In this document: positions 3,201 to 9,200 of the stretch, piece after piece | How positions within the stretch are numbered: position 1 is the stretch's first letter | How the letters are laid out: each line of letters opens with the position of its first letter | Source: Cyanobacteria bacterium P01_D01_bin.156 | GTDB lineage: Bacteria; Cyanobacteriota; Cyanobacteriia; Phormidesmidales; Phormidesmidaceae | NCBI GenBank assembly: GCA_039024555.1 | Contig: JBCCQQ010000111.1 | Coordinates: 1-9,790 of the forward strand | DNA: 9,790 bases | Direction: 5' to 3' | Made by a program: the position numbers

Positions 3201-6200
3201 AGAAGAGCTATCAAAGTAGCGAGCCTTGTACATGTCAGAGGTTGCTACTGCGCGGACAAAACCACGCACAGTGATTTCACCATTTCTGAGCATGGATTCA
3301 GCACTGGTCAAACGCTGACTCTCCAAAACATGGGCATTGCCCAAAACCTGCTTGTAAACTGCACGGATCACAACCTGCAAGTCTTCTTCAGAAGCATTGG
3401 GGCGAAGCTCAACGGCTTCATTATTAATCCAGAGAGACATACCTTTTCTCCTAATAGTGATGATGCATCCGCACTCCAAGCACGGAACTTTTTTACAACA
3501 CAACACCAGCAGAAACGATGGTCTCTGCTGATATCTCTGAGAGCTAAACCTAGTTGGTTTCAGTGACGCTCAGAATCTTTCCACCAGTCTTCAGAATGGA
3601 CTGAATCCGCTTAGATAGCTGGCTGTAGGAAACCACGTATTGCTGCTTGCTAACGCGGCCTAGAGCGGCTGCAGAAGTGGATGTACTCGCTGTAATGCGG
3701 AATCGCTTACCAGTACTACTACGACCAGTTCCAGCCTGAGGAGCCGTAATAGTCGTCGCCAAATTAGAGCCCAGGTCACTAATCAACTGAGCTTGCTTAC
3801 CGCTGTCGCTAGTGGCATCACCTCGTACTAGGGCAAATGTGCGGTTGAAGCCAACATTCTTGACGCCGGTCTGAGTTTGGTTACCGCGTACGAAAGGCAC
3901 ACGATTTTCGCCAAAGCTAGCGGTGTACTCATCGCTATCGATATAAGCGTTGATCTCAGCAGCATAGCCATGCTCGTTGTAAAGAGCAACGTGATTGGCG
4001 ATTTCTGTTTGCTCTTGAGGAGCACGACCTAACAGATGCTTAAAATTAAGCTCAACAAAACGGTAGGCCGATGAATTCTCAAAAAATAGGGAGCGATAAA
4101 GCTCTGACTGGGCGACTGCCCGGACGAATCCTCGAACTGTGATATCGCCATCACGCAGTAGAGATTCAGCGCTAGTTAAACGCTGGCTCTCCATCACATG
4201 CTGGTTGCCTAAAACTTGCTTATATACAGCACGAATGACCGTTTGCAGGTCATCCTCAGTTGCATTGGGGCGAAGTTCAACGGGCACAGCATTGGTTACC
4301 CAAAGTGCCATGGAACAATCCTCCGAAAATAAATTGAGTTTGCTAAAAGGCTTACCGCTAGAGCTAATGCCGCGAGAAATGCTCATCAGATAACGGAAAA
4401 GGGCCAAATATTATTCGCGAAGTATCAGTTCTAGGAACTCAGACAAAGCTCCCCACAGGAAGGATGTCTAACCGGACACAAACATAGGCCACTGCTGCCT
4501 TGACGAGTCAAACTATCGGCTCAATTGACGTTGTCTATATTGAACGGACACAACTTCTAGGCAAGAGCGAACGACGGCTCCAATTTAAACTGCTAAAACT
4601 GACACTCGACATTAGGACCCTATTTAGAGAAATATCGGATTTTGAGAGCTAAATGAGAACAACTTGTTTTTTCTTAATGTTCGTGACGATATATTTTTTA
4701 ATAAATAGTAATAAGGATCACAAATGAGCGATCGCACTCACGCTATTGCGATCGCTCATTGATGGCGTCCCTCAACACAGAAAACCCGCATACTTCCAAA
4801 ACTAGAAGCATGCGGGCATTTAAGAGGTATTTCCAAGCTCCCTATAGGGTGACTAAATTAAATCAACCCAAACATTTTCTGAATAAGCAAATTTCCATCA
4901 GTCACCGGTTGCACCTTCAGCGGATTCTCATAGGAGAGACGCTTTTCTACTCTGGCCTTGGTAGAACCAGCCTTATCACTGGTGGAAACGCTGGTGACCA
5001 GGTCAAACATGTTGACATAGCCTAACAGGCTCTTACCGGTCTGAGTTTTGTAACCACGATAGTAAGGGACAACATTCTCGCCAAAGGCCGCCTGATATTC
5101 TTCACTATCGATATAGGCGTCAATATCCGCGTCGTAGCCATCGTTATCCACAACGGCACTGTGATACACAGTCTCGTCATAGCTCTCAGGCGCACGACCC
5201 AGAAGATGCTTAAAGTTCAGCTCATGACAGCGATAGCGGGGGGCATTGTCAATAAAGCGCGACTTATACAGATCTGACTTAGCTAAAACACGCACAAAGC
5301 CACGTACAGTTAGGTCACCATTCCGCAGCCTAGATTCAGCACTGGTCAGACGCTCGCTCTCCATTACATATGCGTTACCAAGCACCTGCTTGTAGATGGC
5401 GTTAATCACCAAGCTCACATCCTCGTCCGATGCACCAGGACTTAGTTTCACTGGGTCTGCATTGGCAATGGTCTTAAATTGGCCTTCCCAAATGGCTGTA
5501 CGCTCAACAGCCGATAGGGGGCTAGTAGCATCCAGACCAAAGGAATACTCAGGACTCTTAACCGGCGGCAGGATTGGCTTTGGCTGAGGGCGTATATCGG
5601 CAACGGGTATAGTCTGCTCAGTAATGTCAGGAATCCGGCTGGACTGATTGCTGAGGATGGCGCGGTCAACGGCAGCGCCACCATACTGACTCAGCTGCTT
5701 ATCGCTGCTAGAAGCACCGCGCAACAGTTGGAAGGAATGGGTGTAGCTAGCCATGCCCTTACCGGTCTGGGTTTGATAGCCCCGGAAGTAGGGGACGACA
5801 TTCGCCCCAAAGGTTTGGAAATACTCATCACTATCTAAATAGGAGTCAATTTCAGCATAGAACCCTTGTTCAGCCAAAATTTGAATGTGATGGGAGATTT
5901 CTGCACCGTTCTCAGGAGCACGCCCTAACAAATGCTTGAAGTTCAGCTCAACAGTTTTTAAGTTAGTGCACCGCTCATAGAACAGGGTGCGATACCTATC
6001 TGATTTTGCCAGGGCCCGCACAAACTCTAGAACGCTTATATCACCATTGCGTAGCTGGGATTCAGCCGTGGGGAAACGCTCACTTTCCATCAGATGGGCA
6101 TTGCCAAACACCTGTCTGTAGGCAGCTTCGATAACAATATCAATCTGGCTAGTACTGTCTCCGGCAACCAGTTCAACTGGCTGCTGCTCCGCAAATGAAT

Positions 6201-9200
6201 CGGTGTAGGCAGCAATCACAGAAGCGGAGCCCACATCCTGCTTAGCCACAACAACGGGCGCACCAATGGCTTTCGCTAATTGGAACCCTTTGGGATTAAA
6301 GACGTTCTCCTTTTTAGTTTGGAAACCCTTGATCAGGTCTGTTTGTAGCTGCGATCGCTGACTGGTGCGAATTGACTCAGAAATGGTGCGATCGCTACTG
6401 GATAATCCTTTAACCAGTTCAAAGATACGATTGTAACCAGCAACATTCTTACCGGTTTGAGTGGAGTAGCTTACATAGTAAGGAACCGTATCCGTGCCAA
6501 AGTTTTCGTCATACTCTGAGCTATCAAAGTAGGAATCAATTTCAGCATCCAGACCACCTTCAGCCAGAATGCCAAGGTGCTTAGAAACTTCCTTAAAGTT
6601 GTCAGGAGCCCGACCCAGCAAGTGCTTAAAGTTCAGCTCAACAGCTCGAACATTGGAGCAACTCTCAAAGAACAGCGCCCGATACGCATCTGACTTCGCT
6701 AGCGCGCGGACAAACTCTTTAACGTTGTAGGTACCATCCTTAAACTTTGACTCGGCTGTGACCAAGCGCTGGCTTTCCATCAAGTGGACATTGCCAAACA
6801 CCTGCTTGTAGGCAGAGCGAATCAGAATCTCCTTATCTTCGCCGGAGGCACCTGCATAGAACTTAACTGGCTGACTTAACCGAGCAGCAGGGAATGTGGC
6901 CGCTGCCTGCTTAGCGTTATACTGCCGTACCCACTCGCTGGGTGTGACAGGCTCTGTCAGAAACGCCGCTGACTTATAGACAGGAATATAGTCCTTCTTA
7001 GTCAGCTGTTTCTCAGGCGCTTTGTACTCCTGTGGCGGGATAACGGGCGTAGAGATGGGCAGCGTTGCTAAGGGCTTAATCTCCGTCGGCACACCACTCA
7101 ACAACCCCGCCTGAATTTGAGGAGCAGTATTGTTATCAATAGATTTATCACTGCTGGAAGCTCCCTTCACTAGCTGAGAGGAGTGGGTAAAGCCAGACAC
7201 CGAAAGACCTGTTTGAGTTTTATCTCCCCGGTAGTAGGGAACGATATCAGTGCCAAACGTCTGGAAATACTCATCACTGTCTAGGTAGGAGTCAATTTCA
7301 GCGTCAAACCCTCCCTCGGCCAGAGTCTGAATATGTTCAGAGATTTCTGCGTTACCCTCTGGTGCACGGCCCAGCAGATGCTTGAAATTTAATTCGACGG
7401 CGCGAATATTAGAACAATTTTCAAAGAAGATGGCTCGATAACGCTCGGACTTCGCAAGCTGCCGAACAAATTCTAAAACTGTTATTTCACCGCTGCGAAG
7501 CTTGGATTCTGCATTCACGGAACGCTCACTTTCCATCAAGTGGGCATTGCCAAATACCTGTTTGTATGCAGCACGAATAACAACATCCAAGTCTGTAACC
7601 GATGTTGTACCAACAAGCTCTACAGGCTGCGTACCTGAAAAGGGACTTAGATAATTTTTAGTAACATCAAAATCAGCTGTTTGAGGAGTTGCTGCTTTGG
7701 CTACTTCAGCTGCTTTCTTTTTCTTAAGCGCTGCCGCCAAATCGAAGCCTTCAGGATTAAATTTCTTCCTGTTAGCCTTCAATACTTCAGGGCGGAACAA
7801 AGTGTTATTGATCATGAATTTGTCGGTAATTGCCTTCGTTTACACCAGCGATGTCTTAGTTAAGCAAACATCATGTAGCAGAACCCTATGGAGCAACTCC
7901 ATGCATGCTATGAGGCGCGAATCTCACTACATAATAGGACCTATGAGTACCAGGCTGGAAACAGTGGCGCATTTTGCAAAGTCCCCAGCCGAACACACTT
8001 TTAATGATTTAAAAAAAGCTACCTTGAAATACAAGGCAGCCTTTCAGAACACAGCTCACCAAAGATTAAACAATCTCAGTAATGCTAACGATTTTCGCAC
8101 CAGTGCGATGAATGCGCTGAATTTGAGGCGTCATCTTATCAGCGGTAACGATGTACTCGTTCATGCTGACGCGACGGGGAGCGTCAAACTTAGCTGCGGT
8201 GGTCTTAATCTTGAAGCGCTTAGTCGTACCCGAGTTCAAGTTAGTAGCTGCAGCCTTAATCTTGTTACCCTTCTCAGCACCAGCCACCTGAGCAACCAGC
8301 TGAGCAGACTTAACAGAGCTACTCACCTGGGCAGGACCACGATCAATGGCATAGATGCGGTTGTAGCTTACTTGGGACTGACCTACCTGAGTCAAACTAG
8401 CGGTGTAGAAAGGCACTACATTCTCACCAAAGCTGGCCTGATACTCATCACTGTCGATGTAAGAGTCAATCTCAGCGTCGTAACCCTCTTCCACACAGCG
8501 ACGGATGTGCTCGGAAAGCTCAGCCTGGCTCTCAGGAGCACGACCTAGGAAGTGCATGAAGTTGAGCTCTACAAAACGGTAGGGAGCGCAACTCTCGAAA
8601 TAACGACTGCGGTAGAAGTCAGACTTACCCACAGCACGAACGAAATCACGAACGGAAAGAGAACCATCACAAAACTGAGATTCAGCACTAACCAAACGCT
8701 CACTCTCCATCACATGGGGGTTACCCAAAACATGACGGTATACGGCACGAATGATTGCCTGCTTATCTTCACTACTACTTACAGGCCACGACTCAAAAGC
8801 TGTCATTGAAAATCTCCTACTGTTTTTGAAATGTTCTCAACACAAAAAGTAAACATGCAGCCAGACTGAGGAATTAACCCTCAGTCTGGCTAAATTTAAT
8901 CAAGCTTCTAAGAAACGAGGGTAATACTGGCGATTACACCACCCTGCTTGTGAATACGCTTGTATTCATCAGACAGCTTATCGAAGGGCACCATGTATAC
9001 CTTGTTGGCACGGCGGAACTTCGATACGCGGTTGAATGCTTTGGAGCGGTAGCTAGTGACCTCAACACGGTAGATCTTGCCGTTGGCGCTAGCACCCACG
9101 CCGTGGCGAGTACGAGAGGAATCGGCAGGAGTCTGGAAGGTACCACCTGCAGACAATGGAGAGAGAACAGGCGCTGGAATCGCGTTGATCACCAACGAAT

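Follow-up and report, generated by a model that had tools for sequence, protein, structure and literature searches.

A four-REP linker polypeptide within a cyanobacterial phycoerythrin operon as a candidate tether for additional phycoerythrin hexamers

The window analysed here, the 9,790 nucleotides of contig JBCCQQ010000111.1 from Cyanobacteria bacterium P01_D01_bin.156, carries a phycoerythrin (PE) linker operon whose features, as described below, all lie on the minus strand. Genes for a cpeC-type (8908..9768) and a cpeD-type (8066..8806) rod linker are followed by a long linker gene (4858..7815), two cpeE-type rod linkers (3550..4308 and 2688..3440), the lyase genes cpeS (1945..2472; PF09367) and cpeT (831..1445; PF06206), and cpeB, which runs off the contig so that its 5' part alone is present (1..252; NF058508). 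Pfam searches and trees typed the four shorter linkers, each of which has one REP and one CpcD domain with CpeS and CpeT encoded downstream, as the genome-wide survey's note had stated. A gene without a family match (443..748; 101 residues from its second Met) is one that we take to be cpeR-like from its position in an operon of the cpeCDESTR type. The genome as a whole retains the complete canonical linker set (a three-REP ApcE, CpcG, CpeC, CpeD and two CpeE proteins). CpcC did not turn up in this assembly, from which pebA and pebB are missing as well.

Between cpeS and cpeT lies the truncated remnant of a free CpcD-like gene, 35 codons followed by a stop (1717..1824), which is intact in the relatives L001 and L002. 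Such free CpcD-like genes occur within the PE linker operons of L001, L002, L005 and L160 and immediately upstream of the long linker gene in L015, but this assembly yielded no free CpcD-like cap in intact form, one such gene being a remnant and another missing. A terminator-like 15-bp hairpin directly after the long linker gene (4784..4817) is a consensus match only, in a scan that found six such hairpins against 4.6 expected in shuffles; a promoter scan fell below chance (two found against 5.0 expected).

The long gene, which defines what we term family A, has an ATG start and, free of internal stops, encodes a protein of 985 residues and about 110 kDa (7815..4858). PF00427 matched it in four stretches (whole-protein E 5e-197; strongest stretch at residues 73-196), and its 644 bits against a curated cut-off of 28.7 make it a member of the phycobilisome linker superfamily. 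A purpose-built profile placed the REPs at residues 73-196, 325-447, 555-678 and 796-920, giving REP1 (7228..7599), REP2 (6475..6843), REP3 (residues 554-678 as delimited here; 5782..6156) and REP4 (5056..5430). The stretches between them span 122-144, 95-108 and 112-157 residues across family A (95-157 overall). Pfam found neither CpcD (PF01383) nor the ApcE-type phycobiliprotein domain (PF00502) in the protein, and a profile of 250 CpcD domains gave best scores of -3.2 bits or lower in 38 of 38 full-length members, which rules out a degenerate CpcD hidden in the arms. A FLDMAR-type core helix is likewise absent from the 985 residues (best PSSM score 11.9, against a shuffled median of 10.9 and 25.4 for the genome's own CpcG).

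Short conserved motifs lie outside the REPs. The N-terminal arm (residues 1-30; 7726..7815) carries a first copy of a helix motif, FNPxGFDLA, in which F19, N20, P21, G23, F24 and D25 are invariant in 22 of 22 aligned sequences; a second copy, FNPxGFxLA, precedes REP3 (residues 506-517; 6265..6300). A C-terminal amphipathic motif, TD..LIxKxLGL (residues 972-985; 4861..4902), has the pattern of a putative helix, and also sits before the coiled-coil tail in a REP plus coiled-coil family (family B) and in seven-REP proteins of a sister family. An N-arm profile had 14 matches, all of them in family A or its seven-REP sister family apart from three repeat proteins that are unrelated (P0140, P0148 and P0149); in the PDB this profile gave chance matches only (E≥0.065). 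FNPxGFDLA may be a variant of the core-groove helix, whose F/W-L-x-M-A-R-x-L form was matched in P0072, P0105, P0106, P0049 and the genome's own CpcG and unmatched in P0001, P0023 and P0037. Residues 12-120 align to the Gloeobacter linker Glr1262 only from the pre-REP strand onward.

The note's description of an intact, single multi-REP polypeptide with four REPs and without CpcD was thus borne out by the reading frame, Pfam and the REP and CpcD profiles, and homologues were confirmed at full coverage (51-90% identity). Because the same collinear protein is present in independent genomes and dN/dS is low (about 0.04-0.05 against 4/4 tested relatives, although synonymous sites are close to saturated), the four-REP linker is not an assembly artefact; the same data rule out a chimera or a read-through of separate linkers. 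Purifying selection acts on all four REPs and on the arms.

Family A is patchily distributed in marine crown cyanobacteria and has three or four REPs, while its sister family in Xenococcus has six or seven, so that REP number among relatives runs from 3 to 7. The seven-REP protein of Xenococcus sp. PCC 7305 is about 2,000 residues long, or some 220 kDa, and such proteins share the REP plus coiled-coil layout of family B; carriers of family A itself include Leptolyngbya sp. PCC 7375, PCC 7376 and Leptothoe kymatousa. Family A was found in 21 of 161 sampled genomes, and at least one PE-pathway gene in 21/21 of these, a count that overstates the association since the carriers are mutually related. 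Residence in the cpe operon did not hold up as a family trait: it is flanked by cpeD and cpeE in only 5 of 13 Leptothoe-clade genomes, is often stand-alone with its own conserved upstream region, and in the relative L011 adjoins cpcF-cpcE-cpcA-cpcB. Since its place relative to the operon varies and it is missing from six PE-positive congeners (89-99% complete), the gene is accessory, and dispensable in these relatives.

A PE/phycocyanin classifier scored all four REPs as PE-like (+19 to +34, where held-out groups ranged from -60 to 0 for phycocyanin linkers and from -10 to +48 for PE linkers, with a CpeC mean of -2), but it is a weak one: its phycocyanin groups form one clade, so that 'PE-like' may merely mean 'not CpcC-like'. 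Three residues near-fixed in phycocyanin linkers are missing from all four REPs. Gene co-occurrence and the classifier scores nevertheless suggest, indirectly, that PE is probably the partner of the four-REP linker. That the protein might instead bind phycocyanin, or serve outside the working phycobilisome, for example as a PE storage or assembly scaffold, strikes us as very improbable; the stand-alone copies, the phycocyanin neighbours in L011 and the case of MpeF and MpeG, predicted linkers that were not found in phycobilisome preparations, would accord with it, but selection on REPs and arms, the PE genes of every carrier and the missing phycocyanin-linker residues tell against it. A divergent second PE (57-68% identity to CpeBA) adjoins the four-REP gene in L015, L017 and L068; none was found in this assembly, and such a PE was rejected as a requirement.

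The origin of the REPs was examined in a quick tree of 105 rows and a careful tree of 45 rows, the latter providing the support values. The four domains fall with the rod-linker (type II) group, apart from ApcE, and share 27-36% identity with the genome's own CpcG, from which they form separate clades. In the 45-row tree REP2 (a position-specific clade of its own, 99/99) and REP4 cluster by position and REP1 and REP3 only partly, in agreement with the note. Its placement of REP1 to REP3 among CpcC-type linkers was not recovered: these domains group with unnamed single-REP 'S' proteins in a clade separate from CpcC, and REP1 and REP3 (61% identical to each other) belong to the S/A clade. Nor does REP4 join CpeC-type linkers, since it nests inside family B (100/99), which is merely sister to CpeC. 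On these trees, REP1 to REP3 derive from the unnamed single-REP lineage and REP4 from family B, whose tail family A has lost. No REP of the protein grouped with CpeD in the 45-row tree, an alignment outside which MpeD itself lies. The Gloeobacterial linkers form their own clade beside CpcC (98/95), and AU tests (45 rows by 194 columns, with Glr1262 represented by the 806-residue G. kilaueensis protein P0106) rejected both a clade of REP1 to REP4 with the Gloeobacterial domains (p=0.00029) and one of REP1 to REP3, their single-REP kin and those domains (p=0.00075). Orthology to CpcN, CpcJ, Glr1262 or Glr2806 is thereby ruled out (both p<0.001), and the claim of an independent origin stands.

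Despite this separate ancestry, the best PDB match of the four-REP linker (E 3e-217) is CpcN, which serves Anthocerotibacter panamensis as chain-core linker (PDB 8IMN; PMC10696076); the previously reported identities and coverages, 39% and 89% for CpcN and 42% and 64% for Glr2806, were confirmed. CpcN shares tandem type-II REPs, the lack of CpcD and a similar inter-REP spacing (96-108 residues, compared with 102-104 in Glr2806 and 136-138 in the G. kilaueensis linker), but it has five REPs rather than four, bears three N-terminal FLxMAR core helices and binds phycocyanin, whereas family A is linked to PE. The Gloeobacter violaceus proteins Glr1262 (LRC91) and Glr2806 (LRC81), together with CpcJ (PDB 9K9W, 8IML), also have two or three tandem REPs without CpcD, yet differ in their near-identical internal repeats and core-groove helices, and replace CpcG, which is kept here. 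In the accessible sections of the structural papers, each REP of these three proteins lies inside a separate hexamer, and none of the solved CpcD-less multi-REP linkers stacks its own hexamers: those of CpcN form an unstacked chain, those of CpcJ and Glr2806 are capped and sit at the side, and Glr1262 holds three basal ones next to each other.

In those same sections Glr1262 works with CpcC2 as the base for a bundle of rods, and each REP of the four-REP linker might similarly seed a PE rod via the CpcD domains of CpeC, CpeD and CpeE to give PE-only bundles. Such a base would suit an assembly that has four CpcD-bearing PE linkers yet no intact free CpcD cap, and the short helix motif ahead of REP1 and REP3 recalls Glr1262-type proteins. 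As a core-binding motif, however, that helix does not rise above shuffles, the AU tests make family A unrelated to Glr1262, and, with the gene lost from many congeners, the entire architecture would have had to switch often; we consider a bundle base highly doubtful.

Other linkers are more distant in layout. CpcC, CpeC, CpeD and CpeE have one REP and a C-terminal CpcD, which the four-REP linker lacks, and it is also unlike CpcG and CpcL, which have a single type-I REP with a core or membrane helix. ApcE, present in all crown cyanobacteria, and ApcH (outside our trees) are likewise multi-REP chains, but family A has no bilin-binding domain and the genome has its own ApcE. MpeD of marine Synechococcus, modelled as adding a disc to a rod (PMC2246261), is a PE-associated crown linker with more than one linker domain per chain, set apart by its description, namely two domains, a PEII-linker half with a CpeD-like C-terminal half, and PUB-binding cysteines. 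The red-algal linkers LRC2 and LRC3, a REP plus a coiled coil, attach extra PE (PMC12837069), and LR1-derived linkers with diversified C-termini expanded inside red algae (PMC7994580, PMC6811547). They resemble family A in having a REP without CpcD, and family B and the seven-REP sister family in layout, but their REP is single and family A has no coiled-coil tail; a profile of the family B tail found no red-algal linker in the PDB, only chance matches (E≥0.065).

The note had read the protein as threading four hexamers. In such a rod, REP1 (distal) to REP4 (proximal) would organise one stack of four PE hexamers and replace several single linkers, much as MpeD was modelled as replacing two. 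In the accessible literature CpcG normally has its REP N-terminal to an extension that runs towards the core, REP4 belongs to a lineage sister to CpeC, and the position between cpeD and cpeE in some Leptothoe-clade genomes would also fit. Moreover, crown fusions of two to five REPs with one terminal CpcD exist (P0065, P0076-79, P0097 and L143), so REP-to-REP joins without internal CpcD are tolerated, and the gap lengths of family A overlap those of these presumed threading fusions (79-126 residues). But the fusions retain the terminal CpcD, and with neither a C-terminal CpcD plug nor a core helix in the four-REP linker, nothing known would seat a threaded rod. In addition, carriers keep CpeC, CpeD and CpeE, which implies that rods can do without it, a seven-REP sister protein would mean rods with seven extra discs, and the solved precedents, so far as their accessible accounts go, leave their own discs unstacked. 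Threading was therefore not supported, and we regard it as unlikely.

It is established that each REP domain serves one hexamer. We favour, with belief and doubt about evenly balanced, an accessory PE-antenna scaffold that tethers up to four extra, unstacked PE hexamers. Each REP would occupy the cavity of its own PE hexamer, and the 95-157-residue stretches between REPs would exit the cavities, so that one chain could hold up to four discs, arranged in a chain or in bridges alongside normal CpcG/CpeC/D/E rods. The two FNPxGFDLA helices and the TD..LIxKxLGL helix would dock the assembly on antenna proteins elsewhere, not in the usual allophycocyanin groove, and the free CpcD-like proteins of relatives could cap the discs. 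The outcome would be a larger cross-section for green light on an otherwise normal tricylindrical phycobilisome. The analogy to the solved precedents is incomplete because those all have phycocyanin as their partner and are anchored through an N-terminal FLDMAR helix, which is absent here.

The discs might instead belong to a separate, core-less PE module at the thylakoid membrane. There the four-REP linker would act with an S linker and with a CpcL-like linker that is divergent and membrane-anchored, tying PE discs or rods of the CpcL type to one another, and the module might feed photosystem I. Family A lacks a core helix, and the divergent CpcL-like gene occurs in 12/15 congeneric carriers and a separate S gene in 10/15, both against 0/6 PE-positive non-carriers; the genes also adjoin in distant lineages (A and CpcL-like in the Okeania genome L015; A, CpcL-like and S in L053, Xenococcaceae). 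The kinship of carriers means, however, that this may be a lineage effect, 3/15 congeneric carriers have no CpcL-like match, and S proteins bear a CpcG-like core helix (17.2 in the genome's own copy on contig C14), which points back to the core. A core-less module is accordingly improbable in our estimation.

That crown cyanobacteria are held to lack multi-REP linkers proved too wide a claim: the accessible literature denies them only homologues of CpcN, ApcH, Glr1262 and Glr2806, and MpeD is published. Our trees uphold the absence of CpcN and Glr homologues, and in the literature searched we found no description of three- to seven-REP crown linkers. According to one earlier paper, all cyanobacterial phycobilisome structures resolved by then contained phycocyanobilin only; in another, chain linkers were argued to be relicts, possibly eliminated in crown cyanobacteria. 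A wider proposal, which we put a shade short of an even chance, is that giant linkers for several hexamers, with up to seven REPs against the five of CpcN, arose independently and more than once in marine thylakoid-bearing cyanobacteria and, with S, B and divergent CpcL-like linkers, build an undescribed phycobilisome with chains or sheets of extra PE discs. If true, cyanobacteria would have their own counterpart of the enlarged antenna of red algae, and the idea that chains were selected out once thylakoids arose would face a counter-example. Family A suggests antennas of undescribed shape in some ordinary cyanobacteria, and PE-tied crown linkers of three to seven REPs predict shapes beyond the four classes of a 2026 review, reached by convergence; the hypothesis is directly testable in the carrier strains PCC 7375, PCC 7376, Leptothoe kymatousa and PCC 7305.

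Finally, the four-REP linker passes the NCBIfam CpcG2 cut-off (423 against 420 bits) only through the summing of its four domains, which is a likely source of the database name 'rod-core linker'; the family flags a systematic mis-annotation under that name.

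Linker genes for phycoerythrin (PE) form an operon on the window's minus strand, in which cpeC (9768-8908) and cpeD (8806-8066) are followed by the 985-aa reading frame (7815-4858), two cpeE-type linkers, cpeS, cpeT, a gene that we take to be cpeR-like from its operon position, and the start of cpeB; the cpeC, cpeD and cpeE names derive from a tree of REP (PF00427) domains. Perfect or near-perfect hairpins lie between cpeC and cpeD (8858-8892, minus strand) and in the spacer before the first cpeE-type gene (4722-4765). A free CpcD-like gene (1717-1824, minus strand) is truncated after 35 codons; another, which four loci of other genomes contain (L001, L002, L005 and L160), is missing from the window (2473-2687).

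The 985-aa frame has four REPs (R1-R4) and no CpcD domain (PF01383), just as the genome-wide survey's note described it. A profile built from 250 CpcD domains recovers every one of the six CpcD-bearing proteins in the genome; it scored -3.2 bits or less in 38/38 full-length members of family A, as we call this linker and its homologues. The NCBIfam CpcG2 cut-off was passed (423 versus 420 bits) only via the sum of the four domains. With synonymous sites near saturation, dN/dS was ~0.04-0.05 against all four relatives tested, and the arms are constrained too, arm 3 least. An alignment of 22 members revealed an invariant N-terminal FNPxGFD motif, a second copy of which precedes R3, an invariant Trp ahead of R2 and a C-terminal TD..LIxKxLGL motif; R1 and R3 are 61% identical. 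Family A is a real, conserved and unnamed linker family that arose by convergence.

Among the 120 proteins listed from 882 homologues, at least 38, including the window's own, are full-length, collinear four-REP members, beside which three-REP variants exist. Searching 185,579 species genomes for the N-terminal motif gave 21 stretches, all of them family A, from Leptothoe/Adonisia, Okeania, Caldora, one Xenococcaceae MAG and unclassified cyanobacterial MAGs; the copy in PCC 7376 came from the homologue search instead. None was found in 400 genomes drawn phylum-wide (eight candidates scored per genome), and the family is rare. Within its own taxonomic family, 19 of 161 genomes carry a clear copy and two a partial one, across four genera. 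Each of the 21 carriers has at least one gene of the PE pathway: 15 have cpeB, and the remaining six have cpeT, cpeC or pebA (pebA being the sole PE marker found in G496 and G477). Six cpeT-positive congeners (89-99% complete) gave no match, so the gene is accessory. In the Caldora copy (L061:6112-9080) a frame change, either a sequencing error or a real break, splits the gene into 571 and 417 aa.

Residence in the cpe operon holds for the window and does not extend to the family: of 13 Leptothoe-clade copies, five lie in the operon, seven stand alone and one adjoins cpcBA. The cpeD-cpeE spacer of one genome (G432) is similar to both flanks of the 985-aa gene, and in-operon copies retain only ~50 bases of the leader found in stand-alone copies. 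Five stand-alone copies (L003, L006, L008, L010 and L013) carry a GCTCTA-N5-GCTCTA direct repeat ~140-120 bases upstream of the start, possibly a response-regulator site, and in-operon copies lack it.

REP trees were built on extended domains (194 columns) with FastTree (195 rows), a quick IQ-TREE run (105 of those) and a careful one (45 rows). MpeD, Glr1262 itself and red-algal linkers lay outside them, and three unnamed records (P0049, P0068 and P0071) were counted as CpcN-like by similarity. R1-R3, previously called CpcC-type, cluster instead with S, an unnamed single-REP lineage, away from CpcC, CpeC, CpeD and CpeE (94/93). As had been reported, R2 groups by position (99/99), and R1 and R3, mixed in the tree, do so only in part. 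R4 nests inside B, an unnamed family of REP plus coiled-coil linkers (100/99 with REP2 of P0099, 65% identity), so that its reported union with CpeC-type linkers survives only in that B is sister to CpeC. CpcN, CpcJ-like proteins, Glr2806 and P0106 (an 806-aa linker of G. kilaueensis) fall into a separate clade (98/95) next to CpcC. AU tests rejected joining either R1-R4 (p=0.00029) or R1-R3 with S (p=0.00075) to this clade, upholding the proposed origin separate from the Gloeobacterial linkers.

These trees agree with two papers: in one, no CpcN/ApcH homologue above 50% identity occurs outside Aurora and CpcN is called exclusive to Gloeobacteria (PMC10696076); in the other, crown cyanobacteria yielded neither Glr1262 nor Glr2806, and no further linker of G. 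violaceus has more than one REP (PMC12216592). The view that crown cyanobacteria lack multi-REP linkers is thus sound for homologues of CpcN, ApcH, Glr1262 and Glr2806, but not in general, since MpeD has two linker domains (PMC2246261) and a two-domain crown linker is therefore already published. We found no description of crown rod-side linkers with three to seven REPs in the open literature, that is, outside subscription papers and supplements. Further phycobilisome literature was covered (PMC13436157, PMC6811547, PMC8448738, PMC9415938, PMC7994580, PMC12837069).

A search for longer homologues yielded seven proteins of 1805-2015 aa (P0128-P0134) from Xenococcus and relatives, with six or seven REPs, as against five in CpcN. 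Five or six S/A-type REPs with repeated FDLA motifs are followed by an R4-type REP and a full B coiled-coil tail, and the genes at L164:10001-16030, L165:5917-11940 (Xenococcus sp. PCC 7305) and L166:5379-10796 all stand alone. We infer that S-type REPs were probably repeated and fused ahead of a B-type linker, family A being the form that stops before the coiled coil. B linkers combine one to four REPs with a two-helix tail ending RLNKW and often directly follow cpeR (own contig C14:97768-99414, equal to L151:269-1915; L001:21405-23753; P0061 and P0069). The tail profile matched 40/401 genomes, the five weakest doubtfully; REP number varies among congeners (two in this genome, three in L001 and L073), and the layout resembles red-algal LRC2/3. 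In a record titled Prochloron sp. (L191:9977-18260), cpeS, cpeT, a cpeR-like gene and a two-REP B linker lie in a PE linker operon, which is unexpected for a genus not known to have phycobilisomes. The S linkers are type-II, with single or double REPs (own C14:99563-100477 and C126:762-1718; L017:12472-14103), and many finish in a CpcG-like FxxMAR helix, which suggests that they may attach extra PE rods or discs directly to the core.

Since a REP domain sits in the hexamer cavity (bioRxiv 10.1101/2025.06.10.658930), the 985-aa linker would hold four discs, one per REP and not stacked, and would act as an accessory tether for PE discs, a reading to which we give about an even chance. Precedents exist in CpcN, CpcJ, Glr2806 and Glr1262, in which each REP has a disc of its own, not stacked on the others, and the discs are either capped by free CpcD or seed rods (bioRxiv 10.1101/2025.06.10.658930; PMC10696076; PMC12216592). 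Inter-REP spacing in family A (95-157 aa) is comparable to that of these linkers, yet its range also overlaps the 79-126 aa seen in crown fusions with a CpcD end. Those fusions, with two to five REPs and one terminal CpcD (P0065, P0076-P0079, P0097 and locus L143; CpeE-like then CpeC-like REPs in P0076), are the strongest candidates for linkers that truly thread a rod. The 985-aa linker lacks both a terminal CpcD and the FLDMAR core helix of CpcG, CpcN, Glr2806, P0106 and S. Its FNPxGFDLA stretch has only the D-hydrophobic-A part in common with that helix, scoring not above shuffles. All four REPs are PE-like by a leave-one-out classifier, itself weak, and in all of them three residues that are near-fixed in PC linkers are missing. 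Together, the unstacked precedents, the missing CpcD and FLDMAR elements and the PE-like REPs lead us to favour the tether over the threading of one rod through all four REPs (unlikely), over a module anchored by CpcL (somewhat less likely still than threading), over the base of a bundle (improbable) and over other roles (very improbable). Family A would accordingly yield a specific structural prediction, unstacked PE discs on one chain.

The assembly itself encodes ApcE with three REPs, one CpcG, three CpcL-like proteins, one two-REP B, two S and four canonical PE linkers; the core would be tricylindrical by the ApcE rule in bioRxiv 10.1101/2025.06.10.658930. CpcC and an intact free CpcD were not found in it, absences limited by gaps in the PE cluster, from which pebA/pebB are missing too. 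Two cpeBA copies interrupt the assembly at the ends of contigs C110, C111 and C14, and by synteny with L001 and L014, C60, C126, C111, C110 and C14 appear to form one phycobilisome-rod gene cluster, with pebA/pebB in a gap.

Within the genus, whose members are kin and not independent, a divergent CpcL-like gene occurs in 12/15 carriers of family A versus 0/6 PE-positive non-carriers, and a separate S gene in 10/15 versus 0/6; one 65% complete genome (G511) has S without family A. In L015 family A adjoins the CpcL-like gene, and in L053 all three genes are neighbours. In this genome the long-branch CpcL-like protein that co-occurs with A and S is encoded beside cpeBA (C14:101660-102379, equal to L151:4161-4880). 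Several marine filamentous genera have a second, divergent cpeBA pair (57-68% identity), accompanied by a 264-aa linker of its own and in many cases by a small CpcD-like gene (L015:1384-2488, L017:8491-9611, L068, L105, L131 and L137).
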